A DNA stretch of 64,000 nucleotides from Escherichia coli (GTDB taxonomy: Bacteria > Pseudomonadota > Gammaproteobacteria > Enterobacterales > Enterobacteriaceae). Below the pieces are notes generated by a model. It ran no database searches, was not told where the DNA came from, and worked only from the letters and a program-made list of their open reading frames with translations. Position 1 is the stretch's first letter. Every line of letters begins with the position of its first letter. The translations under genes and the position numbers were made by a program. The stretch is taken from the NCBI RefSeq assembly GCF_024700885.2, contig NZ_CP117016.1, one strand, 5' to 3'. Positions 8,955-48,377 of this stretch are shown one piece after another.

Positions 8955-9007
8955 TTTCTGGTGACGTTTGGCGGTATCAGTTTTACTCCGTGACTGCTCT
9001 GCCGCCC
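8955..9007 (+). ncRNA. dicF: DicF small RNA (ftsZ-targeting sRNA processed from the dicB operon transcript)
   Basis: 53-nt stretch tttctggtgacgtttggcggtatcagttttactccgtgactgctctgccgccc followed by TTTTT; matches the DicF sequence as I recall it and sits between ydfC and dicB. Confidence 0.75.
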
Positions 9008-12093: not shown

Positions 12094-12151
12094 TGTTCAA
12101 CCCTGATCGCCGCTAACCGCATATAGTTAGCGGCGGTTATGAGATATAGCT

Positions 12152-12355
12152 ATGAGCAGCTTATTTTTAACCGAAGATGAATTGCTAATATTAACGGGCT
12201 GCAAATATGCAAGCCACCAGCGAAAATGGTTAATGGAAAACGGGCTTCCGTTCTATACCAATCGTAGTGGCAAACCGATTGTCAGCCGGGATCTATTTAC
12301 CTGCAATAAAACTTTACCACCACGCGAGGTAGAGCCGAATTTTGGTGCGATCTGA
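12152..12355 (+). CDS. xis: excisionase (Xis-like)
   Basis: 67-aa ORF immediately upstream of and overlapping (ATGA-type) the integrase start. Confidence 0.6.
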   Translation: MSSLFLTEDELLILTGCKYASHQRKWLMENGLPFYTNRSGKPIVSRDLFTCNKTLPPREVEPNFGAI

Positions 12356-13380: not shown

Positions 13381-13432
13381 TTCCAAGTGTGATTTTTGTC
13401 ACTGACTTAATGATGTATAAGTGATTGAATTT

Positions 13433-13522
13433 TGGCGGAGAGAGGGGGATTTGAACCCCCGGTAGAGTTGCCCCTACTCCGGTTTTCGAGACCGGTCCGT
13501 TCAGCCGCTCCGGCATCTCTCC
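13433..13522 (-). tRNA. serU: tRNA-Ser (anticodon CGA)
   Basis: Reverse complement reads GGAGAGATGCCGGAGCGGCTGAACGGACCGGTCTCGAAAACCGG...CTCTCTCCGCCA, a 90-nt class II tRNA with anticodon CGA and encoded CCA. Confidence 0.9.
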
Positions 13523-13615
13523 GTTCAGATGGTTGCCATGATGCCAGGAAATTTGGCATTTTAACAGTCCCTGTCCGTGCAATTTTGTTCAAGTGACGAG
13601 TTTGCGAGCAAAACG

Positions 13616-14413
13616 ATGATTAAGTGGCCCTGGAAAGTACAAGAATCAGCACATCAAACTGCCCTTCCCTGGCAGGAAGCACTATCGATCCCCCTTTTAA
13701 CGTGTCTGACGGAACAGGAACAAAGCAAATTAGTCACTCTTGCCGAACGTTTTTTACAGCAAAAGCGGCTTGTTCCTTTACAGGGCTTTGAACTGGATTC
13801 ATTAAGAAGCTGCCGGATAGCACTTCTATTTTGCCTGCCCGTTCTGGAGTTAGGACTGGAATGGCTGGATGGTTTTCATGAAGTCTTAATTTATCCTGCG
13901 CCATTTGTGGTCGATGACGAATGGGAAGACGATATCGGTTTGGTGCATAACCAACGTATTGTTCAGTCAGGTCAGAGCTGGCAGCAAGGGCCTATCGTTT
14001 TGAACTGGTTGGATATACAAGATTCTTTTGATGCTTCTGGTTTTAACCTGATTATTCATGAAGTCGCTCATAAGCTGGACACCCGTAATGGCGATCGCGC
14101 CAGCGGAGTTCCCTTTATTCCGTTGCGTGAGGTTGCTGGCTGGGAACACGATCTTCATGCTGCAATGAACAATATTCAGGAAGAAATCGAATTAGTTGGC
14201 GAGAATGCGGCGAGCATCGATGCTTATGCTGCCAGTGATCCTGCTGAATGTTTTGCCGTACTTTCTGAATATTTCTTTAGCGCCCCAGAACTTTTTGCTC
14301 CTCGTTTCCCTTCATTGTGGCAACGTTTCTGCCAATTTTATCAACAAGATCCTTTGCAGAGACTGCATCACGCTAATGATACAGACTCGTTTTCGGCGAC
14401 GAATGTTCATTAA
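13616..14413 (+). CDS. mtfA: Mlc titration factor A (MtfA/YeeI)
   Basis: 265 aa from internal Met [14 protein letters not shown]...; HEVAHKLD zinc-peptidase-like motif; conserved serU-mtfA-asnT synteny of E. coli. Confidence 0.85.
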
Positions 14414-14466
14414 TTAACAACTTTGCAGATTAATTAACCAATTGAAATGGCTTATGAAATTTAGTG

Positions 14467-14495
14467 TTGACAGACAAGGTACCGCTAAGTAATAT
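14467..14495 (+). promoter_or_regulatory. sigma70 promoter of asnT (TTGACA-17bp-TAATAT, GC-rich discriminator)
   Basis: ttgaca at 14467-14472 and taatat at 14490-14495, followed by gcgcccc; the same architecture precedes all four tRNA-Asn copies. Confidence 0.55.
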
Positions 14496-14513
14496 GCGCC
14501 CCGTTCTCACGAT

Positions 14514-14589
14514 TCCTCTGTAGTTCAGTCGGTAGAACGGCGGACTGTTAATCCGTATGTCACTGGTTCGAGTCCAGTCAGAGGAGCCA
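14514..14589 (+). tRNA. asnT: tRNA-Asn (GUU)
   Basis: 76-nt TCCTCTGTAGTTCAGTCGGTAGAACGGCGGACTGTTAATCCGTATGTCACTGGTTCGAGTCCAGTCAGAGGAGCCA; its 3' end is the HPI attachment site. Confidence 0.95.
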
Positions 14590-14750
14590 ATTTTCTGTTT
14601 TCTTGCATCCTTGCGAATCTTTATCTGATGTTGATTCAACAGGTTAGTGTGAAAACTCTTCTCGGTGCATTTTGATTTTACCCTACGCATCGGGAAAAAT
14701 TGGTGGTCAAATCTGGGGTCGGGTTAGTTCGATAATGGAGTGACCCCCAT

Positions 14751-16013
14751 ATATCCCTTACCGACGCAAAAATCCGCACCCTCAAGCCTTCTGATAAACC
14801 CTTTAAAGTCTCCGATTCTCACAGTCTGTATCTGCGGGTCAAGCCGGGTGGCTCCCGCCACTGGTATCTCAAATACCGTATTAGCGGTAAAGAATCCCGC
14901 ATTGCGCTGGGTGCCTATCCAGCCATCTCCCTGTCTGATGCGCGACAGCAACGTGAAGGTATCCGTAAAATGCTGGCGCTGAATATCAACCCGGTACAGC
15001 AGCGGGCTGCTGTACGTGGCTCACGAACACCGGAGAAAGTTTTTAAAAACGTGGCGCTGGCGTGGCATAAAAGTAACAGGAAATGGTCGCAGAACACCGC
15101 CGACCGTCTGCTTGCCAGCCTGAACAATCACATCTTTCCGGTCATCGGGAACCTACCTGTATCAGAACTTAAACCCCGTCATTTCATTGACCTGCAGAAA
15201 GGGATCGAGGAAAAAGGTCTGCTGGAGGTTGCGTCCCGCACACGGCAGCACCTGAGTAACATAATACGCCATGCGGTCCATCAGGAGTTAATCGATACGA
15301 ACCCTGCAGCAAACCTTGGCGGCGTGACCACACCTCCTGTCAGACGGCACTATCCTGCCCTGCCGCTGGAGCGGCTGCCTGAACTGCTTGAACGTATTGG
15401 GGCATATCATCAGGGCCGTGAACTGACCCGGCATGCCGTTCTGCTGATGCTGCATGTGTTCATTCGCTCCAGTGAACTGCGTTTCGCCCGCTGGTCAGAG
15501 ATTGATTTCACAAACCGAGTCTGGACGATACCCGCGACGCGAGAACCCATTATTGGCGTGCATTATTCCGGCCGCGGGGCAAAAATGCGAATGCCGCATA
15601 TCGTCCCCCTCTCAGAACAGTCCATCGCCATTCTGAAACAGATTAAGGATATCACCGGTAATAATGAACTGATCTTCCCCGGCGACCATAACCCGTATAA
15701 GCCAATGTGTGAAAACACGGTCAATAAGGCACTGCGGGTGATGGGTTACGACACGAAAAAGGATATCTGCGGTCACGGCTTCCGGGCAATGGCATGCAGT
15801 GCGCTGATGGAATCGGGTTTATGGGCAAAGGACGCAGTAGAACGCCAGATGAGTCATCAGGAGCGCAATACCGTGCGCATGGCTTATATTCATAAGGCAG
15901 AGCACCTGGAAGCCCGCAAAGCGATGATGCAGTGGTGGTCGGATTATCTGGAAGCATGCCGAGAATCTTATGCACCGCCTTATACAATTGGTAAAAATAA
16001 GTTTATCCCATAG
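14751..16013 (+). CDS. int: P4-family tyrosine integrase of the High-Pathogenicity Island; no canonical start codon in frame
   Basis: Frame open from stop at 14733 to 16013; in-frame N-terminal region ...SLTDAKIRTLKPSDKPFKVSDSHSLYLRVKPGGSRHWYLKYRISGKESRIALGAYPAIS... is the P4-type arm-binding domain, but there is no ATG/GTG/TTG before the Met at 14970 (codon 14751-14753 is ATA). The 5' coordinate is therefore uncertain. Confidence 0.75.
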   Translation: MSLTDAKIRTLKPSDKPFKVSDSHSLYLRVKPGGSRHWYLKYRISGKESRIALGAYPAISLSDARQQREGIRKMLALNINPVQQRAAVRGSRTPEKVFKNVALAWHKSNRKWSQNTADRLLASLNNHIFPVIGNLPVSELKPRHFIDLQKGIEEKGLLEVASRTRQHLSNIIRHAVHQELIDTNPAANLGGVTTPPVRRHYPALPLERLPELLERIGAYHQGRELTRHAVLLMLHVFIRSSELRFARWSEIDFTNRVWTIPATREPIIGVHYSGRGAKMRMPHIVPLSEQSIAILKQIKDITGNNELIFPGDHNPYKPMCENTVNKALRVMGYDTKKDICGHGFRAMACSALMESGLWAKDAVERQMSHQERNTVRMAYIHKAEHLEARKAMMQWWSDYLEACRESYAPPYTIGKNKFIP

Positions 16014-18819: not shown

Positions 18820-20614
18820 GCACCCACTCTCCAGACGCGGAACCCCCGTCGTCGCGCCACACGCGCGCGGCCATTTGCGCCTGCCACAGCGCCTGATAAC
18901 GTCCATGATGTGAGAGCAATTGCGCATGAGTACCCTGCTCAACCACCTGTCCCTCTTCCATCACCAGAATGTTTCCGGCCCCGGCGATGGTGGATAAACG
19001 GTGAGCGATGATAATCACCGTCCGGTTGTGAACCAGGTTATCGATCGCTTTTTGCACCGCCAGCTCGCTTTCAATATCCAGCGCGGCAGTCGGTTCATCG
19101 AGAATGACGACCGGCGCGTTTTTCAATAACGCTCTGGCAATGGAAATCCGCTGGCGCTCGCCGCCCGATAGCTGGCCGCCCATCTCTCCCATTGGCGTCA
19201 GCCAGCCTTGCGGAAGACGGGAAATAAACTCAAGGCACTGCGCCGCGCGGGCGGCCTCTTCTACCTCCTGCCGCGTCGCCTGTGGGCGCGCGATACGGAT
19301 ATTCGCCAGCAGCGTGTCATCAAACAGCCAGACATCCTGGAAAACAACAGAAATCAGGCTATTGAGCTGTTCCGGCGTCAGGCGGCGAATATCGACGCCG
19401 CCAATAGAAATCTGCCCTTGCTGCGGATCGGCATAGCGCATTAACAGTTTGGTGACCGTAGTTTTGCCTGCGCCGGAGGCACCCACCAGCGCGCTCATAC
19501 TGGCTGCCGGGAACGTCAAAGAAACATGATTAAGCGCGTGGCCGTCACCTTCTTCGTAGCGATAGCTGACGTTGTCAAAGCGGATATCGTAACGTTCCGG
19601 CATCTCGCTTTGCTCTGCGACGGGAAGCGGTGCTATCGCCATAAACTGCTCAATCCGTTGCAGGGCGCTGGCGATCAGTTCCACAACCGAGGTGTAGCTG
19701 ATAAACATCGCCATCGGTTCTGCGAAGCGCATAATCATCGCGACGGCGGCAATCAAAAAGGCGAGGTTCAGAGTGCCCGTCACTACCCAGACGATCCCGG
19801 ATAACACCACCACCTGTAGGCCCAACTCCACGACGCTGGCGATCAGCATCGTTGCGCCAGCGCCCTGACGGTGAGTGCGGGTCTGTAAGTTTTCCAGCGC
19901 ATTGAAATGCGCCAGCAGCGCCCGGCTTTTATCGGCATCGCTGCCGCAGGTGCGCAATACCATCATCCCCTGAGCAAATTCAACGATATCGCCGCTCAGA
20001 CGCTGGTGCGCTTCCCCCAGCGTCTGCATTTGTCGCCGCATCGCCGGGCGGCGCCAGTAATAAAACGGCACCAGCAGAGGGAAGATCAGCAACATCACCA
20101 GCCCCAGCCGCCAGTCTATCCACAATGTCGCCAGCGACGCCGTCAGCGGCGTGACAATGGTGAGCAGCAAAATATTGGCTATCGCAATAACATAATTGAG
20201 GTTTTCATCCACGCTGCCCAGCAGCAAGGCGTTCATTTCACCCGCCCTGCCGCGCTGGAGCTTATCCAGCGGCACGCGGCGTAACTGCTCGCCAAGTCGC
20301 AGGCGCAACTCATGGGTAGCCTGCGCCAGATGACCACGGTATTCAAAGCCCAGGCCATACCAGCGTAGCACCAGCGTCACAATTGCGGCGACGCTGAAGG
20401 CCATAGCCCAGTTAAGAAGTTGCGGCGCGTCTCCCCGTAACAGCGCATCAATGATCGGATAAAGACAGGCAAAGGCGATCCCCTGCATGAATGCCGCCAG
20501 CAACAGCGCCAGCATACTGCGTCGCAGCATCCTGGCCTGACTGCCAACGCTGGAGATAAGCTGGCGCCAGATGACGCGCCAGGCCAGGTTATCCGCAGGA
20601 TTATTGTCTTTCAT
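18812..20614 (-). CDS. ybtQ: ABC transporter permease/ATPase fusion YbtQ (Irp7)
   Basis: 600 aa from internal Met; N-terminal six-TM exporter-type domain plus Walker A GASGAGKTT and signature LSGGERQRISIARAL; overlaps ybtP stop by 14 bp. Confidence 0.9.
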   Translation of the reverse strand: MKDNNPADNLAWRVIWRQLISSVGSQARMLRRSMLALLLAAFMQGIAFACLYPIIDALLRGDAPQLLNWAMAFSVAAIVTLVLRWYGLGFEYRGHLAQATHELRLRLGEQLRRVPLDKLQRGRAGEMNALLLGSVDENLNYVIAIANILLLTIVTPLTASLATLWIDWRLGLVMLLIFPLLVPFYYWRRPAMRRQMQTLGEAHQRLSGDIVEFAQGMMVLRTCGSDADKSRALLAHFNALENLQTRTHRQGAGATMLIASVVELGLQVVVLSGIVWVVTGTLNLAFLIAAVAMIMRFAEPMAMFISYTSVVELIASALQRIEQFMAIAPLPVAEQSEMPERYDIRFDNVSYRYEEGDGHALNHVSLTFPAASMSALVGASGAGKTTVTKLLMRYADPQQGQISIGGVDIRRLTPEQLNSLISVVFQDVWLFDDTLLANIRIARPQATRQEVEEAARAAQCLEFISRLPQGWLTPMGEMGGQLSGGERQRISIARALLKNAPVVILDEPTAALDIESELAVQKAIDNLVHNRTVIIIAHRLSTIAGAGNILVMEEGQVVEQGTHAQLLSHHGRYQALWQAQMAARVWRDDGGSASGEWVHE

Positions 20615-22403
20615 TTTCCACCACCTCTTCCTGTGTTCCACCCGGCACCCAATGCTGCGCCTGCTGATAGTGTTGCCAGAGCCGTTGATACAGGCCGCCC
20701 TGCGCCAACAGTTGCGTATGGTTCCCCATTTCCCTGAGTTGTCCGTCGGAAAACAGCAATATCACATCGGCCTGAGTCACCATTGAGAGACGATGCGCGA
20801 CCATGATGACCGTCCGGCCACGCATGGCCGCCGCGAGCGCCTTGATAAGCGCCGCTTCGTTTTCCGGGTCAGCAAACGCCGTCGCCTCATCGAGCACCAG
20901 GATGGGGCGATCCTGCAAAAGCGCCCGGGCGATAGTAATGCGCTGCCGCTGGCCGCCGGAGAGAAATACCCCACGTTCCCCGACTCGAGTGTTGTAACCT
21001 TCTGGCAGAGCGCTAATAAAATCATGGGCCTGCGCCACTCTGGCCGCCGCTATAACCGCCTCCAGCGGCGTATCCGGCGCGCCCAGACGAATGTTATTGG
21101 CTATCGTGTCGGCAAAAAGGAAGTTGTCCTGAAACACAAACGAGAGTTGCTTCATCAGGGTGTCCGTCTGCATATCACGCAGATCCACGCCGCCAATACG
21201 GATATGGCCTTTGTCCGGGTCGGCGTAACGCAGCAGCAAGCGCGCCACGGTGCTTTTTCCGGCGCCGCTTGGCCCGACCAGCGCCACAATTTGCCCGGCA
21301 GGCACATGAAAGCTCACCTCCTGCAACGCGGCGCCAGTACGCGCTTGCGGATAATGAAAGCTCACCTGCTCAAAGGTAATGCTCGCCTCTTGCGGCTGCT
21401 GGTCAGACTGCGGCAGCGATAACTCCGGCATCGCGAGAACCTGATAAATACGCTGAATGCTTAAACGCGTTTGCGCGACCAGGTTATTGAGCATCATCAT
21501 TGGCATTACGGCTTCGGCCATTCCGCTGCCCAGCAGTAAAACGGCCACCCACGCGATAAAATCGAAACTGCCATAGTGCAACAGGCCGTATCCCGACCAG
21601 ATCAGGACAAACAGGGTCGGGAGAGGATTCAGAATCGAGAAGGAAAAACGCGCTGAAAAACCGGCTTTGCGATACCAGGTTTTGAGCACATCGACCCACT
21701 CTTCAAGGGCGCGTTGATAGCGCAAAAAACTGGTGCTGCCGCTATCAAACGTTCTCACCACGGGCATGGCCTGCACGAACTCAATAACCGCCGCGCTAAC
21801 CTGCTCGCGCGCCTTATGATAACGCTGAGCCATATTTTCCGAACGCTGGCGGGCGAGCACGAGAACAACCGATCCAAACGCCAGTACCCCCAGCGTCGCG
21901 ATTGCCAGCCGCCAGTCCAGCCAGAACAAGATAACGATTGTCGCCAGCGGCATGATGATCGCGCGGGCATAGAGCGGCGTGCTGTCGGCCACAAAAATAT
22001 GTAACGACTTCACGTCATCCAGCATCACTTTCGCCACTGACCCGCTGCCCATTTGCTGTAACACGCCAGGCGGAAGCTGCAATGCTTTACGGGCTAACCT
22101 GCTGCGCAGAATGTTCTCCAGATGAAAAGCCGCGTAATGAGAGGTGTTGAACGCCTGTAAGCGCAGAACAAAAGTTAAGACCACGCAGCCGATCACGCCG
22201 CCCAGCGGCCAGGCCGGAATAGCGTCAGGCGTCGCGCGAATGTCACGCAGGCTCCACGCCAGAAAAAGGAGCGCCCCCAGGCTGGTTAATGCCGCCAGCC
22301 CCGCCAGCGCCATAGCTAAAATAACCTTCCTGCGAACCGGTGTAATCACCTGCCAGAGAGGAAATCGGGACAGCGATTCAGTATTGGATGATTGAGATGA
22401 CAT
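20601..22403 (-). CDS. ybtP: ABC transporter permease/ATPase fusion YbtP (Irp6)
   Basis: 600-aa ORF; Walker A GPSGAGKST, signature LSGGQRQRITIARAL; first gene of ybtPQXS, divergent from ybtA. Confidence 0.9.
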   Translation of the reverse strand: MSSQSSNTESLSRFPLWQVITPVRRKVILAMALAGLAALTSLGALLFLAWSLRDIRATPDAIPAWPLGGVIGCVVLTFVLRLQAFNTSHYAAFHLENILRSRLARKALQLPPGVLQQMGSGSVAKVMLDDVKSLHIFVADSTPLYARAIIMPLATIVILFWLDWRLAIATLGVLAFGSVVLVLARQRSENMAQRYHKAREQVSAAVIEFVQAMPVVRTFDSGSTSFLRYQRALEEWVDVLKTWYRKAGFSARFSFSILNPLPTLFVLIWSGYGLLHYGSFDFIAWVAVLLLGSGMAEAVMPMMMLNNLVAQTRLSIQRIYQVLAMPELSLPQSDQQPQEASITFEQVSFHYPQARTGAALQEVSFHVPAGQIVALVGPSGAGKSTVARLLLRYADPDKGHIRIGGVDLRDMQTDTLMKQLSFVFQDNFLFADTIANNIRLGAPDTPLEAVIAAARVAQAHDFISALPEGYNTRVGERGVFLSGGQRQRITIARALLQDRPILVLDEATAFADPENEAALIKALAAAMRGRTVIMVAHRLSMVTQADVILLFSDGQLREMGNHTQLLAQGGLYQRLWQHYQQAQHWVPGGTQEEVVENERQ

Positions 22404-22481
22404 GGGAGTAACTGAATTTCCTGATGAATTTTTACGGACGCCAAAAACGACAATTCAGGGTGGCGTTCTGAGAATTAATGT

Positions 22482-22536
22482 GAATAATAACCATTATCAA
22501 TAACTCATCTACCCCATTCGGTTCTATTTATACCCG
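22482..22536 (-). promoter_or_regulatory. ybtP promoter region: Fur-box-like sequence plus YbtA repeat (RS) in reverse orientation
   Basis: gaataataaccattatc (22482-22498) resembles the Fur consensus; the reverse complement of 22509-22536 (cgggtataaatagaaccgaatggggtag) parallels the RS palindromes upstream of irp2 and fyuA. Confidence 0.45.
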
Positions 22537-22569
22537 CATTGGTCTAAGCCACAGGGAGATAACCAGGTC

Positions 22570-23529
22570 ATGACGGAGTCACCGCAAACGCAATCTGAAA
22601 TCTCTATTCACCAGTTGGTGGTCGGGAAACCTGCAAACGATGGCAATATTCCTGCTCAGTGTGAACTGCTGCGCTGTTCGTTGCAGGAAGGTATGGATAT
22701 TTTGCTCTGGAGGGGCCATTTTGCGCGGCCAGAGACGTTGCAGCTACACGACGATCTGGGCAGGATTAACTTCTCGTGCATCCTGGAAGGCACATCGCGC
22801 TTTGCGATTCAGGGACTCCGGCGCCACACCGACTGGGAGCTTGCGCGCAATCGCCATTACATTACCCATACGCCAGACTGTCGCGGCAGCGCCTCCTATT
22901 GTGGCCGATTCGAGAGCATTACCCTCTCCTTCAGCCCTGAAACCCTCGCGCTGTGGGTGCCGGATATTAGCGCGGTCATTAAGAATAAGATCGACTCCCA
23001 CTGCTGTTGCCAGCAGCAGCGTTGTAATGCTGAAACCCACTTAACGGCTCAGGCCTTGCGTCACGCGCTGATGCGCATGCACGGCGGCTTCAGTCATGAA
23101 CAAAAGCCGTCGACGCTATGGTTGCAGGGGCAAAGTCTGGTCATGCTCAGCCTGGTGCTGGATGAACATCGCGAAGACGCCAGTTGCCTCTCCTGCCACT
23201 TCAACCCGATGGAACGCCAGAAACTGCTGCGGGCGAAGGATCTGCTGCTGGCTGATCTGACGCAAGCGCCGGGCGTCGCGGAGCTGGCCAGAGAGTCCGG
23301 TCTGAGCGTTCTCAAAATTAAGCGAGGCTTCCGCGTTCTGTTCAACAACAGCGTCTATGGCCTGTTTCAGGCTGAACGAATGCAGGAAGCCAGAAGACGC
23401 CTGGCCAACGGCAATACCTCCGTCATGACGGTGGCGGCCGATCTGGGCTATGCCAACGCCAGCCATTTCTCTGCCGCCTTCCAGAAACAGTTTGGCGTAA
23501 CTCCTTCGACCTTTAAACGCGGGATGTAA
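22570..23529 (+). CDS. ybtA: AraC-family transcriptional activator YbtA
   Basis: 319-aa ORF with C-terminal AraC-type HTH (...GYANASHFSAAFQKQFGVTPSTF); located between ybtP and irp2. Confidence 0.9.
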   Translation: MTESPQTQSEISIHQLVVGKPANDGNIPAQCELLRCSLQEGMDILLWRGHFARPETLQLHDDLGRINFSCILEGTSRFAIQGLRRHTDWELARNRHYITHTPDCRGSASYCGRFESITLSFSPETLALWVPDISAVIKNKIDSHCCCQQQRCNAETHLTAQALRHALMRMHGGFSHEQKPSTLWLQGQSLVMLSLVLDEHREDASCLSCHFNPMERQKLLRAKDLLLADLTQAPGVAELARESGLSVLKIKRGFRVLFNNSVYGLFQAERMQEARRRLANGNTSVMTVAADLGYANASHFSAAFQKQFGVTPSTFKRGM

Positions 23530-23563
23530 CCGGGGTCGCGCCCCCCTAAACTCCTCCCTGACA

Positions 23564-23598
23564 GAGGCCCGGATACCCCATCCGGGCCTCTGTTCTTT
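23564..23598 (+). terminator. rho-independent terminator after ybtA
   Basis: Inverted repeat agaggcccgga / tccgggcctct followed by gttcttt. Confidence 0.5.
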
Positions 23599-23611
23599 CC
23601 GCCTGTTACCA

Positions 23612-23676
23612 ACCCGAAACGGGCATAAATAAACCCGTTTCGGGTAGCATCCAATTGTTAATAATTATTATTCTCA
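23612..23676 (+). promoter_or_regulatory. irp2 promoter: 38-bp RS palindrome (YbtA site) plus Fur-box-like sequence
   Basis: acccgaaacgggcataaataaacccgtttcgggtagca (23612-23649) is near-identical to the element at 42895-42932 upstream of fyuA; AT-rich Fur-like ttgttaataattattattctc at 23656-23676. Confidence 0.55.
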
Positions 23677-23719: not shown

Positions 23720-26700
23720 ATGATTTCTGGCGCACCATCTCAGGATTCGCTGTTACCGGACAACCGCCACGCGGCTGATTACCAACAATTACGCGAGCGG
23801 CTCATACAGGAACTGAATTTAACGCCGCAGCAGTTACATGAAGAGAGCAACCTGATCCAGGCCGGCCTGGATTCCATAAGATTGATGAGATGGTTACACT
23901 GGTTTCGTAAAAATGGCTACCGCCTTACCCTTCGCGAGCTGTATGCCGCCCCCACGCTGGCGGCATGGAACCAGTTAATGCTCAGCCGGTCGCCGGAGAA
24001 CGCGGAAGAAGAAACGCCGCCCGACGAATCATCCTGGCCGAACATGACCGAAAGTACCCCCTTCCCATTGACGCCAGTACAGCACGCCTACCTGACGGGC
24101 CGCATGCCGGGGCAGACGCTTGGCGGCGTGGGTTGCCACCTGTATCAGGAGTTTGAAGGCCATTGTCTGACGGCGTCGCAGCTGGAGCAGGCCATCACGA
24201 CCTTGCTGCAACGCCACCCAATGCTGCATATCGCCTTTCGCCCCGACGGGCAGCAGGTCTGGCTACCGCAACCTTACTGGAACGGCGTCACCGTTCATGA
24301 TTTACGCCATAACGACGCTGAAAGCCGCCAGGCCTATCTGGACGCACTGCGCCAGCGCCTGAGCCACCGTCTTTTACGCGTGGAAATCGGCGAAACGTTT
24401 GATTTTCAGCTGACGCTCTTGCCGGACAATCGCCACCGCCTCCATGTCAATATTGACCTGCTGATTATGGATGCCTCCAGCTTTACGCTTTTCTTCGATG
24501 AGCTTAACGCCCTGCTGGCCGGAGAATCGCTGCCGGCTATCGACACCCGCTATGATTTCCGCTCGTATTTGCTGCACCAGCAGAAGATTAATCAACCACT
24601 GAGAGACGACGCGCTCGCTTACTGGCTGGCGAAAGCATCGACGCTTCCCCCCGCGCCCGTCTTGCCGCTGGCCTGCGAACCCGCCACGCTATGTGAAGTC
24701 CGTAATACCCGACGCCGCATGATTGTCCCGGCAACACGCTGGCACGCCTTTAGCAACCGGGCCGGCGAGTATGGCGTGACGCCGACAATGGCACTGGCGA
24801 CCTGTTTTTCTGCCGTGCTGGCTCGCTGGGGCGGCCTGACGCGTCTGCTGCTTAACATCACCTTATTCGACCGCCAGCCGCTGCACCCGGCGGTTGGCGC
24901 GATGCTTGCCGACTTCACCAATATTCTTCTGCTGGATACCGCCTGCGATGGCGATACCGTCAGCAACCTGGCGCGTAAAAACCAGCTCACGTTTACGGAG
25001 GACTGGGAGCATCGCCACTGGTCCGGCGTCGAATTACTCCGTGAACTCAAACGCCAGCAGCGCTACCCCCACGGCGCCCCGGTGGTATTTACCAGCAATC
25101 TGGGGCGTTCCCTCTACAGCAGCCGCGCAGAATCGCCGTTGGGCGAGCCGGAATGGGGCATCTCGCAAACGCCGCAGGTCTGGATAGATCATCTGGCGTT
25201 CGAGCATCACGGCGAGGTCTGGCTACAATGGGACAGCAACGACGCGCTGTTCCCTCCGGCGTTAGTCGAAACATTGTTCGACGCCTACTGCCAGTTGATT
25301 AACCAACTCTGCGATGACGAAAGCGCCTGGCAAAAGCCGTTCGCAGATATGATGCCCGCCAGCCAGCGCGCGATACGCGAACGGGTCAACGCCACCGGCG
25401 CCCCCATTCCCGAAGGCTTGCTGCATGAAGGCATTTTCCGTATCGCTCTGCAACAGCCGCAGGCGCTGGCGGTAACGGACATGCGTTATCAGTGGAATTA
25501 TCATGAGCTGACAGACTATGCCCGCCGTTGCGCGGGCAGGTTAATCGAGTGCGGGGTTCAGCCCGGCGATAATGTGGCTATCACGATGTCGAAAGGCGCA
25601 GGACAACTTGTTGCGGTTCTGGCCGTCCTGCTGGCCGGGGCGGTTTACGTTCCGGTTTCGCTGGATCAGCCTGCCGCACGGCGCGAGAAAATCTACGCTG
25701 ACGCCAGCGTCCGGCTGGTGCTCATTTGTCAGCACGACGCCAGCGCCGGGTCAGACGATATTCCCGTCCTTGCCTGGCAGCAGGCCATTGAGGCGGAGCC
25801 GATCGCCAACCCGGTAGTACGCGCCCCCACGCAACCGGCCTACATTATCTACACCTCCGGCTCTACCGGTACGCCGAAAGGGGTAGTCATTTCTCACCGG
25901 GGAGCGCTTAACACCTGTTGCGATATCAATACCCGCTATCAGGTTGGCCCGCATGACAGGGTGCTGGCCCTCTCCGCCCTACATTTTGATTTATCGGTTT
26001 ACGACATTTTTGGCGTACTGCGCGCGGGCGGCGCGCTGGTGATGGTGATGGAAAATCAACGGCGCGATCCTCACGCATGGTGTGAGCTGATCCAGCGCCA
26101 TCAGGTCACGCTCTGGAACAGCGTCCCGGCGCTGTTCGATATGCTGCTGACCTGGTGTGAAGGTTTCGCCGACGCCACGCCGGAAAACCTGCGCGCAGTG
26201 ATGCTTTCCGGCGACTGGATCGGGCTTGACCTCCCCGCCCGTTATCGGGCCTTCCGGCCACAAGGACAATTTATCGCGATGGGCGGTGCCACCGAGGCGT
26301 CTATCTGGTCTAACGCCTGCGAAATTCACGACGTCCCCGCCCACTGGCGCTCCATCCCTTACGGTTTTCCGCTAACCAACCAACGCTACCGGGTGGTGGA
26401 TGAACAGGGCCGGGACTGCCCTGACTGGGTGCCGGGTGAATTATGGATTGGCGGCATTGGGGTCGCGGAAGGCTATTTCAACGATCCCCTGCGTAGCGAG
26501 CAGCAATTTTTGACGCTCCCGGACGAGCGCTGGTATCGCACCGGCGATCTCGGCTGCTACTGGCCAGATGGCACAATCGAGTTCCTCGGTCGTCGTGACA
26601 AGCAGGTCAAAGTCGGAGGATATCGCATCGAGCTGGGCGAAATCGAAAGCGCGCTCAGCCAGCTGGCGGGGGTGAAACAAGCAACCGTTCTGGCGATCGG

Positions 26701-29700
26701 CGAAAAAGAAAAAACGCTGGCGGCATACGTTGTTCCTCAGGGCGAGGCTTTTTGCGTTACCGATCATCGGAACCCGGCACTGCCGCAGGCGTGGCACACG
26801 CTTGCGGGAACGTTGCCCTGTTGCGCCATCTCGCCAGAGATCTCCGCAGAACAGGTAGCCGATTTCCTTCAGCATCGCCTGCTAAAACTGAAGCCGGGTC
26901 ACACCGCTGGCGCCGATCCTCTCCCCCTGATGAACTCACTCGCTATCCAGCCGCGCTGGCAGGCCGTGGTGGAACGCTGGTTAGCATTTCTGGTGACACA
27001 ACGGCGACTGAAGCCCGCTGCTGAAGGTTATCAGGTCTGCGCTGGTGAAGAACGCGAGGATGAGCACCCGCACTTCAGCGGACATGATTTAACGTTATCG
27101 CAAATTCTTCGCGGTGCCCGTAACGAACTGTCGTTACTGAACGACGCGCAGTGGTCGCCGGAAAGCCTGGCCTTTAACCATCCGGCCAGCGCCCCGTATA
27201 TTCAGGAACTGGCGACAATTTGCCAACAGCTTGCACAGCGCTTACAGCGCCCGGTACGCCTGCTTGAGGTGGGAACCCGCACTGGCCGCGCCGCAGAATC
27301 GCTGTTAGCACAGCTCAACGCCGGACAGATTGAGTATGTCGGGCTTGAGCAGAGCCAGGAGATGCTGCTGAGCGCCCGGCAGAGGCTCGCCCCCTGGCCT
27401 GGCGCCCGTCTGTCCCTCTGGAATGCAGACACGCTGGCGACGCACGCTCACTCGGCGGACATTATCTGGCTTAATAACGCCCTGCATCGTCTGCTGCCGG
27501 AAGATCCCGGGCTCCTTGCGACATTACAACAGCTTGCCGTTCCCGGCGCGCTGCTCTACGTGATGGAGTTTCGCCAGTTAACGCCGTCCGCCCTACTCAG
27601 CACGCTCCTGTTAACCAATGGGCAGCCGGAGGCCTTGCTGCATAACAGCGCCGACTGGGCGGCATTATTTAGCGCGGCCGGCTTCAACTGTCAGCATGGC
27701 GATGAGGTCGCGGGGTTACAACGCTTCCTCGTACAATGTCCTGACAGGCAGGTGCGCCGCGATCCCCGTCAACTTCAGGCCGCCCTCGCCGGGAGTCTGC
27801 CGGGGTGGATGGTGCCGCAACGGATCGTATTCCTCGACGCCTTACCGCTGACGGCTAACGGGAAAATTGACTACCAGGCGCTGAAGCGTCGTCATACCCC
27901 TGAAGCGGAAAACCCGGCCGAAGCGGATTTACCCCAGGGCGACATTGAAAAACAGGTTGCCGCCCTCTGGCAGCAACTCTTATCAACTGGCAATGTCACC
28001 AGAGAAACCGACTTCTTCCAGCAAGGCGGCGATAGCCTGCTGGCGACCCGTCTGACCGGGCAACTTCATCAGGCAGGTTATGAAGCGCAATTAAGCGACC
28101 TGTTTAATCATCCCCGGCTGGCGGATTTTGCCGCCACGCTGCGGAAAACCGACGTCCCGGTCGAACAACCATTCGTCCACTCCCCTGAAGATCGCTACCA
28201 GCCCTTTGCGCTTACCGACGTGCAGCAGGCTTACCTGGTGGGGCGTCAGCCGGGCTTTGCCCTGGGCGGCGTCGGCTCACATTTCTTTGTTGAATTTGAA
28301 ATTGCCGATCTGGACCTCACCCGGCTGGAGACGGTCTGGAACCGATTAATCGCCCGCCACGATATGCTGCGCGCCATCGTGCGTGATGGACAGCAACAGG
28401 TGCTCGAACAGACGCCCCCTTGGGTGATACCCGCACACACCCTCCATACGCCTGAAGAGGCGTTGCGGGTGCGCGAAAAACTGGCGCATCAGGTACTCAA
28501 CCCCGAAGTGTGGCCGGTATTCGATCTCCAGGTCGGATACGTGGACGGGATGCCTGCCCGCCTGTGGCTGTGTCTGGATAACCTGTTGCTTGACGGTCTG
28601 AGCATGCAGATCCTGCTGGCGGAGCTGGAGCACGGCTACCGCTACCCGCAACAGCTGCTTCCGCCGCTGCCCGTCACCTTCAGGGATTATCTGCAACAAC
28701 CCTCGCTACAGTCGCCCAATCCAGATTCTCTGGCATGGTGGCAGGCGCAGCTTGATGATATTCCTCCGGCGCCTGCGTTGCCGCTGCGCTGCTTGCCTCA
28801 GGAGGTTGAAACACCGCGCTTCGCCCGCCTGAACGGCGCACTGGACAGCACGCGCTGGCATCGGCTGAAAAAACGGGCGGCTGACGCCCATCTCACCCCG
28901 TCGGCCGTACTGTTGTCGGTGTGGTCAACGGTTCTCTCTGCATGGAGTGCACAGCCTGAGTTCACGCTTAACCTTACGCTTTTCGACAGGCGACCGCTGC
29001 ACCCGCAAATCAACCAGATTCTGGGCGATTTCACCTCGCTGATGCTGCTGAGCTGGCATCCCGGCGAAAGCTGGCTGCACAGCGCGCAGTCACTACAGCA
29101 GCGGCTGAGCCAGAACCTCAACCACCGCGATGTGTCAGCCATCCGCGTGATGCGTCAACTGGCGCAACGGCAAAACGTGCCTGCCGTTCCGATGCCCGTC
29201 GTCTTTACCAGCGCACTGGGCTTTGAGCAGGATAACTTCCTCGCCCGGCGTAATCTGCTCAAACCGGTCTGGGGCATCTCCCAGACGCCGCAGGTCTGGC
29301 TCGATCACCAGATTTATGAATCCGAAGGCGAACTGCGCTTTAACTGGGATTTTGTCGCCGCGCTGTTTCCTGCCGGGCAGGTGGAGCGCCAGTTTGAACA
29401 GTATTGCGCATTGCTAAACCGAATGGCCGAGGATGAAAGCGGCTGGCAACTGCCGCTCGCCGCGCTGGTGCCTCCCGTTAAACACGCAGGGCAATGCGCA
29501 GAGCGCTCACCGCGCGTATGCCCTGAGCACTCTCAGCCACACATTGCGGCGGACGAGAGCACCGTCAGCCTGATTTGCGACGCCTTCCGCGAGGTGGTTG
29601 GCGAGTCTGTCACGCCCGCAGAAAACTTCTTTGAGGCGGGCGCAACGTCGCTGAATCTGGTGCAACTGCACGTTTTGTTACAACGTCACGAATTTTCCAC

Positions 29701-29827
29701 CCTGACGTTGCTTGACCTCTTCACCCACCCTTCTCCTGCTGCCCTGGCCGATTATCTGGCCGGCGTCGCCACGGTGGAGAAAACAAAACGACCTCGCCCT
29801 GTTCGCCGTCGTCAGCGGCGGATATAG
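23720..29827 (+). CDS. irp2: yersiniabactin NRPS HMWP2 (ArCP-Cy-A-PCP-Cy-PCP)
   Basis: 2035 aa from Met at 23720 (strong SD aggagg); carrier-protein Ser motifs [24 protein letters not shown]; cyclisation DxxxxD motifs DLLIMDASS and DNLLLDGLS; adenylation core [12 protein letters not shown]. Confidence 0.92.
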
Positions 29828-29914
29828 CGCGAAGCAAACTGATTTTCCCCGGAACGCCATCGCGAACGCATGGCGTTCCATTGACTTTGTGAATCTTAGG
29901 AAACGGGACCGATT

Positions 29915-32900
29915 ATGGATAACTTGCGCTTCTCTTCTGCGCCGACAGCAGATTCCATTGATGCATCGATCGCTCAACACTACCCGGACTGCGAACCTGT
30001 CGCGGTTATCGGCTACGCCTGCCATTTTCCTGAATCGCCGGATGGCGAAACGTTCTGGCAAAATCTGCTGGAAGGTCGTGAATGCAGCCGACGCTTTACG
30101 CGCGAAGAGCTTCTGGCCGTCGGTCTGGATGCCGCCATCATTGACGATCCTCATTATGTCAATATCGGTACGGTGTTAGACAACGCCGACTGCTTCGACG
30201 CCACCCTGTTTGGCTATTCGCGACAGGAAGCGGAGTCGATGGACCCGCAGCAGCGCCTGTTTTTGCAGGCGGTCTGGCATGCGCTGGAACATGCCGGTTA
30301 TGCCCCCGGCGCCGTCCCCCATAAGACCGGCGTTTTCGCCTCTTCCCGGATGAGTACCTACCCCGGTCGCGAAGCATTGAACGTGACAGAAGTCGCGCAG
30401 GTAAAAGGTCTGCAATCTCTGATGGGCAATGATAAAGACTATATTGCCACCCGCGCCGCGTACAAACTCAACCTGCACGGCCCGGCGTTATCGGTACAGA
30501 CCGCCTGCTCCAGCTCGCTGGTTGCCGTGCATCTGGCCTGTGAAAGCCTGCGCGCAGGCGAATCCGATATGGCGGTGGCCGGCGGCGTGGCGCTCTCTTT
30601 CCCCCAGCAGGCGGGCTATCGCTACCAGCCCGGAATGATTTTCTCTCCCGATGGCCACTGTCGTCCTTTTGACGCCTCGGCTGAGGGCACCTGGGCCGGT
30701 AATGGTCTCGGCTGCGTGGTTCTGCGTCGCCTGAAAGACGCGCTACTGTCAGGCGATCCGATTATCTCGGTGATCCTCTCCAGCGCGGTCAATAACGACG
30801 GCAACAGAAAGGTCGGCTATACCGCCCCTTCCGTCGCCGGGCAGCAGGCGGTCATCGAAGAGGCGTTAATGCTGGCGGCCATCGACGACAGGCAGGTAGG
30901 TTACATTGAAACCCACGGCACCGGCACACCGCTGGGCGATGCGATTGAAATAGAAGCGTTACGCAACGTCTATGCGCCGCGCCCGCAGGACAGGCGCTGT
31001 GCGCTCGGTTCCGTGAAAAGCAATATGGGGCATCTGGATACCGCGGCAGGCATTGCCGGACTGCTGAAAACCGTTCTGGCCGTCAGTCGCGGACAAATTC
31101 CACCCTTATTGAATTTCCACACCCCCAACCCGGCGCTGAAGCTTGAGGAGAGCCCCTTTACCGTACCAGTGTCGGCGCAAGCGTGGCAGGATGAAATGCG
31201 CTATGCGGGCGTATCCTCCTTTGGTATTGGCGGCACCAACTGCCATATGATCGTCGCCTCGCTGCCCGATGCGCTCAACGCGCGCCTCCCCAATACGGAT
31301 GGCGGCAGAAAAAGTACTGCGCTGCTGCTCAGCGCCGCCAGCGACAGCGCGTTGCGGCGGCTGGCGACGGATTATGCCGGGGCGCTGAGGAAGAATGCGG
31401 ATGCCAGCGATCTGGCCTTCACGGCCCTGCACGCGCGCCGTCTCGATCTTCCTTTCCGCCTGGCGGTGCCATTAAACCGTGAAACCGCCGACGCGCTCAG
31501 CACCTGGGCTAGTGAGAAATCGGGGGCGCAGGTATACAGCGGCCACGGCGCCAGCGGCAAGCAGGTGTGGCTGTTTACCGGCCAGGGCTCGCACTGGCGC
31601 ACTATGGGCCAAACGATGTACCAGCACTCAACGGCGTTTGCCGACACGCTGGATCGCTGTTTTTCCGCCTGTAGCGAAATGCTCACGCCGTCACTGCGCG
31701 AAGCGATGTTTAACCCCGATTCGGCGCAGCTGGACAATATGGCCTGGGCGCAGCCGGCGATTGTCGCGTTTGAAATCGCGATGGCGGCGCACTGGCGTGC
31801 TGAAGGACTGAAGCCAGACTTCGCCATTGGGCATTCCGTCGGTGAATTTGCCGCTGCCGTTGTCTGCGGACACTATACGATTGAACAGGTCATGCCACTG
31901 GTTTGTCGGCGCGGCGCGCTAATGCAGCAGTGCGCAAGCGGCGCGATGGTGGCGGTATTTGCAGACGAAGACACGCTGATGCCGCTGGCTCGCCAGTTTG
32001 AGCTGGATCTCGCCGCCAACAACGGTACGCAACATACGGTATTTTCCGGGCCGGAAGCCCGTCTCGCGGTATTTTGCGCCACGCTCTCGCAGCATGACAT
32101 TAACTATCGTCGCCTGAGCGTAACCGGTGCGGCGCACTCCGCTTTACTGGAGCCGATACTCGATCGGTTCCTGGACACCTGCGCGGGACTGCACGCGGAG
32201 CCGGGGCAAATACCGATTATTTCCACGCTCACCGCCGACGTCATTGATGAGTCAACGCTCAACCAGGCGGATTACTGGCGCCGACACATGCGCCAGCCGG
32301 TGCGTTTTATCCAGAGTATTCAGGTGGCGCATCAGCTCGGCGCCCGCGTTTTTCTGGAGATGGGGCCCGATGCCCAGTTGGTTGCTTGCGGGCAGCGCGA
32401 ATACCGCGATAACGCATACTGGATAGCCAGCGCCCGGCGTAACAAAGAGGCGAGCGATGTCCTCAATCAGGCCCTGCTCCAGCTTTACGCTGCCGGCGTC
32501 GCCCTACCGTGGGCCGACCTGCTGGCGGGCGATGGACAACGTATCGCTGCGCCATGTTATCCGTTTGATACTGAACGTTACTGGAAAGAGCGCGTCTCCC
32601 CGGCCTGCGAGCCTGCCGACGCAGCGCTGTCTGCCGGGCTGGAGGTGGCGAGTCGCGCCGCGACAGCGCTCGATCTCCCTCGCCTGGAAGCGCTTAAACA
32701 GTGCGCCACGCGACTGCACGCCATCTACGTCGATCAACTGGTACAACGCTGTACCGGCGATGCCATTGAGAACGGCGTGGACGCCATGACCATCATGCGC
32801 CGTGGACGTCTGCTGCCCCGCTACCAGCAGCTACTCCAGCGCCTGCTGAATAACTGCGTGGTCGACGGCGATTACCGCTGCACCGACGGGCGATACGTCC

Positions 32901-35900
32901 GCGCCCGCCCCATTGAACATCAACAGCGGGAATCACTGCTGACGGAACTTGCCGGTTATTGTGAAGGTTTTCAGGCTATTCCCGACACCATCGCCCGTGC
33001 CGGCGATCGGTTATATGAAATGATGAGCGGCGCGGAAGAACCGGTGGCGATTATCTTCCCGCAAAGCGCCTCCGACGGCGTGGAAGTGCTGTATCAGGAA
33101 TTCAGCTTTGGCCGCTATTTCAACCAAATCGCCGCCGGGGTATTACGCGGCATTGTCCAGACGCGTCAGCCCCGCCAGCCGTTGCGTATTCTTGAAGTTG
33201 GCGGCGGAACCGGCGGCACCACCGCGTGGCTGCTGCCGGAACTCAACGGCGTTCCGGCACTGGAGTACCATTTCACCGATATCTCGGCGCTGTTCACCCG
33301 TCGCGCCCAGCAGAAATTCGCCGACTACGATTTTGTGAAGTATAGCGAGCTGGATCTCGAAAAAGAGGCGCAGTCTCAGGGTTTCCAGGCACAGTCTTAC
33401 GATCTTATCGTGGCAGCGAACGTGATTCACGCCACCCGCCATATTGGCCGCACGCTCGATAATCTGCGCCCCCTGCTCAAGCCGGGCGGGCGCCTGCTGA
33501 TGCGCGAAATCACCCAGCCAATGCGTCTGTTTGACTTCGTTTTCGGCCCGCTGGTTCTTCCGCTACAGGATCTCGACGCCCGCGAAGGTGAGTTATTCCT
33601 CACCACCGCTCAGTGGCAACAACAGTGCCGCCACGCCGGATTCAGCAAAGTGGCGTGGCTACCGCAGGATGGCAGCCCGAACGCCGGGATGAGCGAACAT
33701 ATCATTCTCGCCACGCTGCCCGGTCAGGCGGTTAGCGCCGTAACATTCACCGCGCCATCAGAACCCGTGTTGGGGCAGGCGCTGACGGATAACGGTGATT
33801 ATCTCGCCGACTGGTCTGATTGCGCAGGTCAGCCCGAACAGTTTAACGCCCGCTGGCAGGAGGCATGGCGTCTGCTTTCACAGCGTCATGGCGACGCTCT
33901 GCCTGTGGAACCGCCCCCCGTCGCCGCCCCGGAGTGGCTGGGGAAGGTTCGCTTAAGCTGGCAAAACGAAGCCTTTTCCCGCGGTCAGATGCGCGTTGAA
34001 GCCCGTCATCCTGCTGGCGAGTGGCTGCCGCTATCGCCCGCCGCGCCTCTTCCTGCGCCGCAAACGCATTATCAATGGCGCTGGACGCCCCTCAACGTCG
34101 CCAGCATTGACCATCCGCTTACCTTTAGCTTCAGCGCCGGTACGCTTGCGCGCAGCGACGAGCTGGCGCAATACGACATCATTCACGATCCGCACGCCTC
34201 TTCACGACTGATGATTGTTGAGGAGAGCGAGGATACGCTGGCCTTAGCGGAGAAAGTGATAGCAGCGCTCACCGCCAGCGCAGCCGGATTGATTGTGGTT
34301 ACTCGCCGCGCGTGGCGAGTCGAGGAAAATGAAGCACTCTCTGCATCCCATCACGCGCTATGGGCCTTGCTTCGCGTCGCGGCCAACGAACAGCCGGAAC
34401 GGTTGCTTGCCGCCATCGATCTCGCCGAAAACACCCCGTGGGAAACGCTGCATCAAGGGTTGAGCGCAGTCTCACTATCACAGCGCTGGCTCGCCGCACG
34501 GGGTGACACCCTTTGGCTTCCTTCACTGTCGCCCAATACGGGATGCGCCGCTGAATTACCGGCAAACGTGTTTACCGGCGATAGCCGCTGGCATCTGGTG
34601 ACCGGAGCGTTTGGCGGATTAGGCCGCCTTGCCGTGAACTGGCTCAGAGAAAAAGGGGCGCGACGCATCGCCCTGCTGGCGCCGCGCGTGGATGAGTCAT
34701 GGCTACGCGACGTGGAGGGCGGGCAGACGCGCGTCTGCCGTTGTGATGTGGGCGATGCCGGGCAACTGGCCACGGTTCTTGACGATCTGGCGGCCAACGG
34801 CGGCATTGCCGGAGCGATTCATGCCGCTGGCGTATTGGCTGACGCGCCCTTGCAGGAGCTTGATGACCACCAGCTGGCTGCCGTTTTCGCGGTAAAAGCG
34901 CAGGCGGCAAGCCAGCTGTTGCAAACCCTGCGCAACCACGACGGACGCTATCTTATTCTCTACTCTTCCGCTGCCGCCACCCTCGGCGCGCCGGGTCAGA
35001 GCGCCCATGCGCTGGCCTGCGGCTACCTGGACGGGCTGGCCCAGCAGTTTTCCACCCTTGATGCGCCGAAAACGCTCTCTGTCGCCTGGGGCGCATGGGG
35101 AGAAAGCGGTCGGGCGGCCACGCCGGAAATGCTGGCGACGCTCGCCAGCCGAGGTATGGGCGCGTTAAGCGATGCCGAAGGCTGCTGGCACCTGGAACAG
35201 GCGGTGATGCGCGGCGCCCCGTGGCGACTGGCGATGCGCGTTTTTACCGACAAAATGCCCCCGTTACAACAGGCTCTGTTTAACATCAGCGCCACAGAAA
35301 AAGCCGCAACGCCGGTCATTCCTCCTGCTGATGACAACGCCTTTAACGGCAGCCTGAGCGATGAAACAGCGGTGATGGCATGGCTGAAAAAGCGGATTGC
35401 GGTTCAGCTAAGGCTGAGCGATCCGGCGTCACTGCATCCAAACCAGGATCTGTTGCAACTCGGCATGGACTCGCTGCTCTTCCTTGAACTCAGTAGCGAT
35501 ATTCAGCACTACCTGGGTGTACGCATCAATGCGGAACGGGCGTGGCAGGATCTGTCTCCTCATGGACTCACGCAGCTTATCTGTTCTAAGCCAGAGGCGA
35601 CGCCTGCCGCTTCGCAGCCGGAAGTGTTGCGGCACGACGCCGACGAGCGTTATGCGCCCTTCCCTTTGACGCCCATTCAGCACGCCTACTGGCTGGGGCG
35701 AACCCACCTCATTGGCTATGGCGGCGTCGCCTGTCACGTCCTGTTTGAGTGGGATAAACGCCACGATGAGTTCGATCTCGCCATACTGGAGAAAGCATGG
35801 AACCAGCTCATCGCACGCCACGATATGTTGCGTATGGTGGTTGATGCCGACGGGCAGCAGCGAATCCTGGCGACAACGCCGGAGTATCACATCCCGCGTG

Positions 35901-42894: not shown

Positions 42895-42964
42895 ACCCGA
42901 AACAGGTTGAAATAAACCCGTTTCGGGTAGCACTACTATTAGAAATAGTTATCATTTTCAATTC
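42895..42964 (+). promoter_or_regulatory. fyuA promoter: RS palindrome (YbtA site) plus Fur box
   Basis: acccgaaacaggttgaaataaacccgtttcgggtagca (42895-42932) and ttagaaatagttatcattttcaattc (42939-42964) with Fur-consensus-like core. Confidence 0.55.
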
Positions 42965-46304: not shown

Positions 46305-46319
46305 GTTGGAGTCATTACC

Positions 46320-48276: not shown

Positions 48277-48377
48277 TAGCCTGGCGAAGATCATCCGATC
48301 TTCGCCTTACACTTTTGTTTCACATTCCTGTGACATACTATCGGATGTGCGGTAATTGTATGGAACAGGAGACACAC

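Follow-up and report, generated by a model that had tools for sequence, protein, structure and literature searches.

Near-identical palindromes of 38 bp at two promoters, together with a third, inverted copy close by, raise the question of whether such repeats are operators, RNA hairpins or dispersed mobile elements. We examined this question in a stretch of 64,000 nucleotides from Escherichia coli, the whole of which is referred to below as the window. The original prediction held that the repeats lie at the irp2, fyuA and ybtP promoters and combine a binding site for the regulator YbtA with a Fur operator, in the manner described for the ybt regulon of Yersinia. In extraintestinal E. coli, in Klebsiella and in Yersinia, yersiniabactin contributes to virulence and fitness as a major factor, and the operators in question set the timing of its production. 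The sites themselves, their spacing, their promoter specificity and their conservation were computed here; for the binding of Fur, the dependence on YbtA and the start of ybtA transcription we draw on published work.

Genomic context of the repeats

Many E. coli chromosomes contain the segment 22300-23800 with 100% identity, and 2267 of 5426 complete genomes carry it. In the RefSeq annotation of one such 100% identical chromosome a tRNA-Asn gene and an integrase gene are accompanied by ybtS, ybtX, ybtQ and ybtP on the minus strand and by ybtA, irp2, irp1, ybtU, ybtT, ybtE and fyuA on the plus strand, which bears out the assignment of the repeats to irp2, fyuA and ybtP. Family searches recovered an ABC exporter, an AraC-type helix-turn-helix protein, a non-ribosomal peptide synthetase, a relative of salicyl-AMP ligases and a TonB-dependent siderophore receptor, and the database cluster nearest to the ybtA product (99% identical) bears the name YbtA. 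This region of the window is the yersiniabactin high-pathogenicity island of E. coli. The genes that matter for the following analysis are:

20601-22403, minus strand: ybtP, first gene of the ybtPQXS operon, activated (RefSeq start at 22313)
22570-23529, plus strand: ybtA, AraC-type regulator (RefSeq; Pfam HTH_18, 3.4e-19, residues 239-317)
23720-29827, plus strand: irp2 (HMWP2), first gene of the activated irp2-irp1-ybtUTE operon (RefSeq)
43015-45036, plus strand: fyuA, TonB-dependent yersiniabactin receptor, activated gene (RefSeq)

The start of ybtP is called differently by RefSeq (22313; 570 aa) and by the open frame, which reaches back to an ATG at 22403 (600 aa), and gene calls in related loci are divided in the same way (567-568 aa versus 600 aa). 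The window contains four tRNA-Asn genes (14514-14589, 51346-51421, 53170-53245 and 55578-55653). The island adjoins the first of these, with the integrase gene right behind it (14751-16013); tRNA-Asn genes are the classic insertion site of the island. The genes irp2 and irp1 contain many internal direct repeats of 60-80% identity (24000-37200, plus strand), spaced by 4116 and about 7480 nt; probably these are not regulatory but correspond to paralogous synthetase domains. Downstream of fyuA (45687-48494, plus strand) the RefSeq annotation has a gene with an inverse-autotransporter beta-domain and, behind it, an Ig-like-domain pseudogene disrupted by a frameshift. Towards the other end of the window, Rfam models detect a sok antitoxin RNA (3165-3335, minus strand; 100.8 bits) and a DicF RNA (8956-9007, plus strand; 76.7 bits), and the layout of open reading frames before about 13.4 kb departs from that of the reference genome annotation. 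From a comparison of the layouts, this DNA is probably different in the source strain and perhaps prophage-derived.

A bipartite element at three promoters

The two plus-strand 38-mers occur exactly where they had been placed and differ from each other, as stated, at 4 of 38 positions. The third, inverted copy that had been announced next to a Fur-like box in the ybtP-ybtA divergent region does exist there, but the interval originally given to it, 22509-22536, is wrong and spans one half-site, the spacer and only the edge of the other half-site. The predicted operators, with their scores against a matrix built from distant homologous sites (see below), are:

22507-22544, minus strand: YbtA operator directed towards ybtP (RS1+RS2), in the 5' leader of ybtA; 44.1 bits
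23612-23649, plus strand: YbtA operator of the irp2 promoter, ACCCGAAACGGGCATAAATAAACCCGTTTCGGGTAGCA; 44.6 bits
42895-42932, plus strand: YbtA operator of the fyuA promoter, ACCCGAAACAGGTTGAAATAAACCCGTTTCGGGTAGCA; 41.6 bits

Each 38-mer consists of a 13-bp half-site, an 8-bp A/T-rich spacer, a second 13-bp half-site and a terminal AGCA or AGAT, so that the half-sites start 21 bp apart. In the irp2 copy these parts are ACCCGAAACGGGC (23612-23624), ATAAATAA (23625-23632) and ACCCGTTTCGGGT (23633-23645), followed by AGCA; in the fyuA copy, which begins 10 nt past the stop codon of ybtE, the half-sites are 42895-42907 and 42916-42928; and the ybtP copy reads GACCAATGCGGGT ATAAATAG AACCGAATGGGGT AGAT on the minus strand. 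As each half-site is itself nearly palindromic (ACCCG-N3-CGGGT), the tandem pair doubles as a single long inverted repeat. The central triplets AAA and TTT bring this palindrome close to perfection at irp2 and fyuA, and the arms of the irp2 copy are complementary at 12 of 12 positions. The operators lie 70, 82 and 103 nt upstream of the start codons of irp2, fyuA and ybtP, respectively, and each points at its gene.

A degenerate pattern that covers both plus-strand 38-mers has only two matches on both strands of the 64 kb, against an expectation of 0.00 in 100 dinucleotide-preserving shuffles, and a chance origin of the 38-mers was rejected. A repeat finder reports the irp2 and fyuA copies as a 42-nt direct pair of 88% identity, the similarity of which ends at both edges. 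The ybtP copy agrees with the irp2 copy at 25 of 38 positions without gaps; this is the best non-self match among about 128,000 strand-positions, the next unrelated position reaching 22 of 38. A recent origin of one of these two sites from the other, by duplication or by gene conversion between the promoters, was also considered and rejected: the four differences persist in the orthologues of Serratia symbiotica, where the variants CAGGTTG (fyuA) and CGGG(C/G)AT (irp2) are both retained, and the likeness of the two sites is thus not the result of recent copying.

Predicted Fur boxes at a fixed offset from the repeats

To locate Fur boxes we scored ungapped matches to the 19-bp consensus GATAATGATAATCATTATC across the whole window (about 128,000 strand-positions). 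The boxes that adjoin the repeats are as follows, no strand being assigned to them:

22480-22498: Fur box common to the divergent, overlapping ybtP and ybtA promoters, GTGAATAATAACCATTATC; 15/19, joint best in the window
23657-23675: Fur box of the irp2 promoter, GTTAATAATTATTATTCTC; 15/19, joint best in the window, ending 44 nt before the irp2 ATG
42941-42959: Fur-like box of the fyuA promoter, AGAAATAGTTATCATTTTC; 13/19

A Fur-like sequence had been expected within 10 bp of each plus-strand 38-mer, which is correct: the gaps between the end of each of the three 38-mers and its box are 7, 8 and 8 nt. Measured from the GGGT of the proximal half-site, the boxes start after 11 (irp2), 12 (fyuA) and 12 (ybtP) nt. 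A score of 13/19 is reached by 24 of the about 128,000 strand-positions, which for the fyuA box taken alone is the background of the window, and this box appears convincing only through the offset that it shares with the others and through its conservation in orthologues. The fyuA operator and its Fur-like box are kept in Raoultella and two Klebsiella species, while the 8-nt linker between them varies.

Published gel-shift experiments agree with these positions. Fur shifted an irp2 promoter fragment with a predicted site identical to 23657-23675, and likewise a ybtA promoter fragment from the Salmonella plasmid pESI with the predicted site GTGAATAATAAGCATTATC (PMC11225919). The latter differs from 22480-22498 by one base. 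The same study places the ybtA transcription start 5 bp after its Fur box (PMC11225919).

Correspondence to the published repeated sequences

YbtA-binding "repeated sequences" (RS) and Fur boxes have been described at the irp2 and fyuA promoters and at the divergent, overlapping irp6 (ybtP)/ybtA promoters, and YbtA activates irp2, fyuA and irp6 and represses its own gene (PMC5634559, PMC8725597). We mapped the primers of the reporter constructs of PMC5634559 onto the window, which gives the following starting points:

22411: 3RS construct, whole region including RS3
22461: 2RS+ construct, Fur box, RS1 and RS2
22502: 2RS construct, RS1 and RS2
22529: 1RS construct, RS2 only

The starts at 22502 and 22529 bracket both half-sites of 22507-22544, which indicates that RS1 and RS2 are the two halves of the minus-strand copy. 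The single 38-bp palindromic element of the original prediction is thus counted in the literature as two sites, RS1 plus RS2, and RS3 was missing from that prediction. The 2RS+ and 2RS primers confine the Fur box to 22461-22501. Two YbtA sites have been reported in the ybtA 5' leader (PMC8805033), and these agree with a ybtA start near 22504 and an operator at 22507-22544. The ybtA leader also contains ACAGGGA (22552-22558, plus strand), which fits the CsrA motif ACARGGA, and binding of CsrA to this leader is on record (PMC8805033).

The 3RS and 2RS+ primers (PMC5634559) also bound the remaining published site:

22411-22460, plus strand: stretch in which RS3 must lie, beyond the shared Fur box in the direction of ybtP

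No significant match for RS3 was obtained in 22404-22470 with either the full 38-nt matrix or a 15-nt half-site matrix. The best half-site-like candidate, ACAATTCAGGGTGGC at 22450-22464, scores 3.7 bits and is not significant, which means that the motif model fails to cover every reported YbtA site. Within the RS3 stretch, GACGCCAAAA...GTGGCGTTCTGA is kept in close relatives. The ybtP/ybtA site coincides with the published RS1 and RS2 positions by way of the primers; the match of the irp2 and fyuA sites to YbtA footprints is indirect and draws on secondary sources and conservation.

Conservation of the module across YbtA homologues

We compared the window with ten further loci that encode YbtA homologues of 47-91% identity:

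ENA assembled contig (L007): YbtA identity 91%
Logan assembled contig (L002): 90%
Serratia symbiotica (L001): 79%
Pluralibacter gergoviae (L004): 57%
Xenorhabdus bovienii (L003): 56%
Pectobacterium (L005): 55%
Zymobacter (L010): 54%
Erwinia rhapontici (L006): 51%
Burkholderia oklahomensis (L008): 49%
Xanthomonas hydrangeae (L009): 47%

The operator module is present in all ten. With a matrix derived from the three sites of the window, the promoters at which operators were expected, namely the divergent region upstream of the regulator (with the site pointing away from it), the region downstream of the regulator and the receptor promoters, rank top in every locus. Their sites score 14.7-38.1 bits, against shuffle maxima that average 10.6-12.7 bits, the weakest being those of Xanthomonas (17.2 and 14.7 bits). 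In the reverse test a matrix was built solely from 17 sites of the loci with 47-57% identity and is thus independent of the window. This distant-site matrix yields 44.6 bits at irp2, 44.1 at ybtP and 41.6 at fyuA, compared with 7.6 for the best unrelated position in the 64 kb, and reverse-strand echoes of the palindromes at about 25 bits. By its score, the supposedly degenerate ybtP copy is in no way inferior to the other two as a family site.

The family consensus is naCCGATnCGGGtAGAAAnAgAnCCGaTTCGGGTAGnn, in which a half-site of 13-15 bp with the consensus aCCGATtCGGGTAGA occurs twice, 21 bp apart. The profiles of the left and right half-sites correlate at 0.83 in direct and at 0.71 in inverted orientation. 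In the distant sites the identity between the cores (7.6/13) equals the complementarity of the arms (7.4/13), which follows from the near-palindromic nature of the half-sites themselves; the flanking AG(A) alone favors a direct repeat. The perfect palindrome is a local feature of the island and no requirement of the family.

Of 27 sites from 11 loci, 19 have their best Fur match beginning 10-13 nt after GGGT, and a further five have it 6 nt after GGGT, equivalent to a shift by one hexamer. Two sites lack a Fur box (10966-11003, plus strand, in Erwinia rhapontici and 9932-9969, minus strand, in Zymobacter; best match 9/19), and the corresponding promoters might be YbtA-dependent without direct repression by Fur. 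Alignments of the intergenic regions show conserved blocks that coincide with the half-sites and the Fur boxes. The DNA-binding domain of YbtA is 69-90% identical among the homologues, whereas the N-terminal domain is 36-74% identical, a contrast that fits a conserved operator read by regulators with more diverged ligand-binding halves. A search of 100,044 species genomes with the exact 21-mer AAATAAACCCGTTTCGGGTAG returned four stretches, in the fyuA promoters of Raoultella and two Klebsiella species and in Xenorhabdus bovienii; this exact query is too strict for a survey of the family, and yielded no Yersinia sequence.

Several of the loci have peculiarities of their own. The Xenorhabdus bovienii homologue is an orphan with no yersiniabactin transport or synthesis genes nearby, and has operators with Fur-like boxes on both sides (9934-9971, minus strand; 10976-11013, plus strand), the latter followed by small unannotated frames only. 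In Pectobacterium and Erwinia rhapontici, ybtPQ-like exporters, the YbtA homologue, an MFS transporter and a TonB receptor form clusters for uptake only, each with three YbtA-type operators, and no synthetase genes are found within the 10-kb flanks; these may be siderophore-piracy loci. Immediately behind the YbtA homologue and its operator, Pectobacterium (11083-11505), Burkholderia oklahomensis (11367-11810) and Xanthomonas hydrangeae (11220-11657) have a gene for a protein of 140-147 aa without a Pfam match; the E. coli island lacks this gene. In Serratia symbiotica (11136-15379) a truncated irp2 homologue of 928 aa precedes a transposase gene, and the gene calls include no counterpart of irp1; even so, both the irp2 and the fyuA promoter retain an intact operator and Fur box. 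In Zymobacter a 682-nt gap upstream of the receptor (5607-6288, minus strand) contains two operator-plus-Fur modules about 440 nt apart, which suggests an uncalled small gene or a second promoter.

Operators, RNA hairpins or dispersed repeats

A palindrome that folds as well as those at irp2 and fyuA might act mainly at the RNA level, as a terminator or 3'-end stabilizer of the upstream, co-directional genes ybtA and ybtE. The predicted RNA folds are strong (irp2 copy, -21.7 kcal/mol, z = -6.7; fyuA copy, -20.2 kcal/mol, z = -4.9), and the fyuA copy, given its position just past ybtE, stands where no other terminator is visible. However, neither hairpin is followed by a plus-strand T-run, AGCATCC and AGCACTA being found there instead; a terminator scan flags the hairpins on the minus strand only, where no gene ends; and neither matches an Rfam family. 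The ybtP copy forms no such hairpin (-9.5 kcal/mol, z = -1.2), folding energies of 23 homologous sites range from -3.7 to -23.4 kcal/mol, and outside the irp2 and fyuA sites of the island the arms are on average complementary at 7.4 of 13 positions; conservation concerns base identity and not pairing. Moreover, ybtA already possesses a canonical terminator of its own just before the irp2 copy:

23560-23602, plus strand: intrinsic terminator of ybtA, with a GC-rich stem of 15 bp and then TTCTTTCC

The fold of 23540-23660 reaches -52.3 kcal/mol (z = -8.6), and the terminator separates the ybtA and irp2 transcription units. A role chiefly as RNA hairpins is accordingly highly improbable. A combined function, in which the irp2/fyuA palindrome is an operator that additionally forms a 3' hairpin insulating or stabilizing the ybtA and irp2-...-ybtE transcripts, is entertained because the only island copy without an upstream transcript, that of ybtP in the divergent region, is also the one that does not fold, and because the family consensus tolerates poor arm complementarity, so that a palindrome with 12-bp arms may exceed the needs of YbtA. 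We regard this addition as rather unlikely.

The 38-mer also resembles a dispersed repetitive extragenic palindrome or miniature mobile element in being palindromic, intergenic and present in more than one copy. Such an element should occur in many scattered copies, whatever the gene cluster, yet a 47-nt query was found in 2266 of the 5426 complete E. coli genomes, essentially the island count, at a median of four places per genome, which equals two loci on both strands owing to the palindrome. The likeness between the copies stops at the edges of the 42-nt block, and in the ten other loci the motif occurs only at promoters beside YbtA homologues; the probability of this explanation is practically nil. 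There is only a slim chance that a different regulator, for instance another host protein of the AraC type, shares these operators with YbtA or is their main reader. In favor of this, the ybtA promoter is reported to need the entire RS region for full activity even when YbtA and yersiniabactin are both absent, as in E. coli DH5alpha, and an unknown factor has been proposed (PMC5634559). The DH5alpha effect lies on the RS3 side and not in the 38-mer. In all loci examined, which range from Enterobacterales to Burkholderia and Xanthomonas, the motif is accompanied by a YbtA homologue, and the DNA-binding domain of YbtA is conserved along with it. Another factor may therefore act on the RS3 side, while YbtA stays the reader of the 38-mers.

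Taken together, the three sites are very probably cis-regulatory modules for YbtA and Fur at irp2, fyuA and ybtP, in the arrangement originally proposed. That reading draws on the ybtP/ybtA primers of PMC5634559, the Fur box of PMC11225919 and the conservation in ten of ten loci. The operators are real, functional, well conserved and already described, and their layout adds no new biology.

A model for activation and repression

Under the preferred reading, the irp2, fyuA and ybtP promoters would each carry a bipartite operator for the AraC-type activator YbtA, in which the phasing of 21 bp, or two helical turns, would place both half-sites on one face of the DNA. In the presence of iron, Fur would occupy the box overlapping the -10 region and block transcription. 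When iron is lacking Fur would leave, and YbtA, probably as a dimer loaded with yersiniabactin, would fill the two half-sites. The end of the proximal half-site lies about 10 bp before the Fur box, at the position expected for the -35 element. AraC-family activators usually have a half-site abutting the -35 element, where they contact RNA polymerase directly; the proximal half-site with CGGGTAG would likewise abut it and recruit RNA polymerase to promoters without a good -35 element of their own. A scan with the sigma-70 consensus detected nothing at the irp2 and ybtP/ybtA sites, and its sole match around fyuA lies on the minus strand, within the coding sequence of that gene; this absence of a recognizable sigma-70 promoter fits activator-dependent promoters. 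The -10 and -35 positions used here derive from the Fur box, the published ybtA start and the spacing. In the ybtP-ybtA region the operator faces ybtP and would lie at about +4 to +41 of the ybtA transcript, such that one binding event could activate ybtP and at the same time repress ybtA, a negative autoregulation in which bound YbtA might act as a roadblock.

Significance and comparison with known systems

The present analysis adds exact coordinates, the corrected third copy, the resolution of the 38-mer into two phased half-sites and the conservation of the module across gamma- and beta-proteobacteria. The consensus of two aCCGATtCGGGTAGA half-sites 21 bp apart with a Fur box 11-12 nt later, common to gamma- and beta-proteobacterial YbtA homologues, may be unpublished as such. 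It could serve the annotation of YbtA-type regulons elsewhere, including receptor-only "piracy" clusters.

In the pyochelin system of P. aeruginosa, the genes of which have a PchR-box (Michel et al. 2005, cited in PMC9774294), the AraC-type protein PchR is activated by its own siderophore and switches on Fur-repressed biosynthesis and receptor operons (PMC9774294). PchR thus resembles YbtA in role, both being siderophore-activated AraC-type regulators of Fur-repressed genes, and differs from it in recognition sequence and ligand. The PchR-box is about 32 bp long, with two heptamer direct repeats about 21 bp apart, and would match CGGGCAT-N14-CGGGTAG; for the YbtA operators the 21-bp phasing and the preference for direct repeats were seen here. 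P. aeruginosa PchR is not named among the 120 listed YbtA homologues.

By sequence, the closest relatives of YbtA with solved structures are the DNA-binding domains of SoxS and AraC. The YbtA half-sites, unlike AraC I1-I2, are near-palindromic (the pair being an inverted repeat as well), and their sequence alone leaves the orientation undecided. Otherwise the I1-I2 site is built as proposed for the YbtA sites, with two direct half-sites of about 15-17 bp, a phasing of 21 bp and a proximal half-site that abuts the -35 element. The closest parallel is the published yersiniabactin regulon itself, which has the same island, genes, promoters and layout as the window and from which nothing substantive differs here, the host being Yersinia in the one case and E. 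coli in the other.
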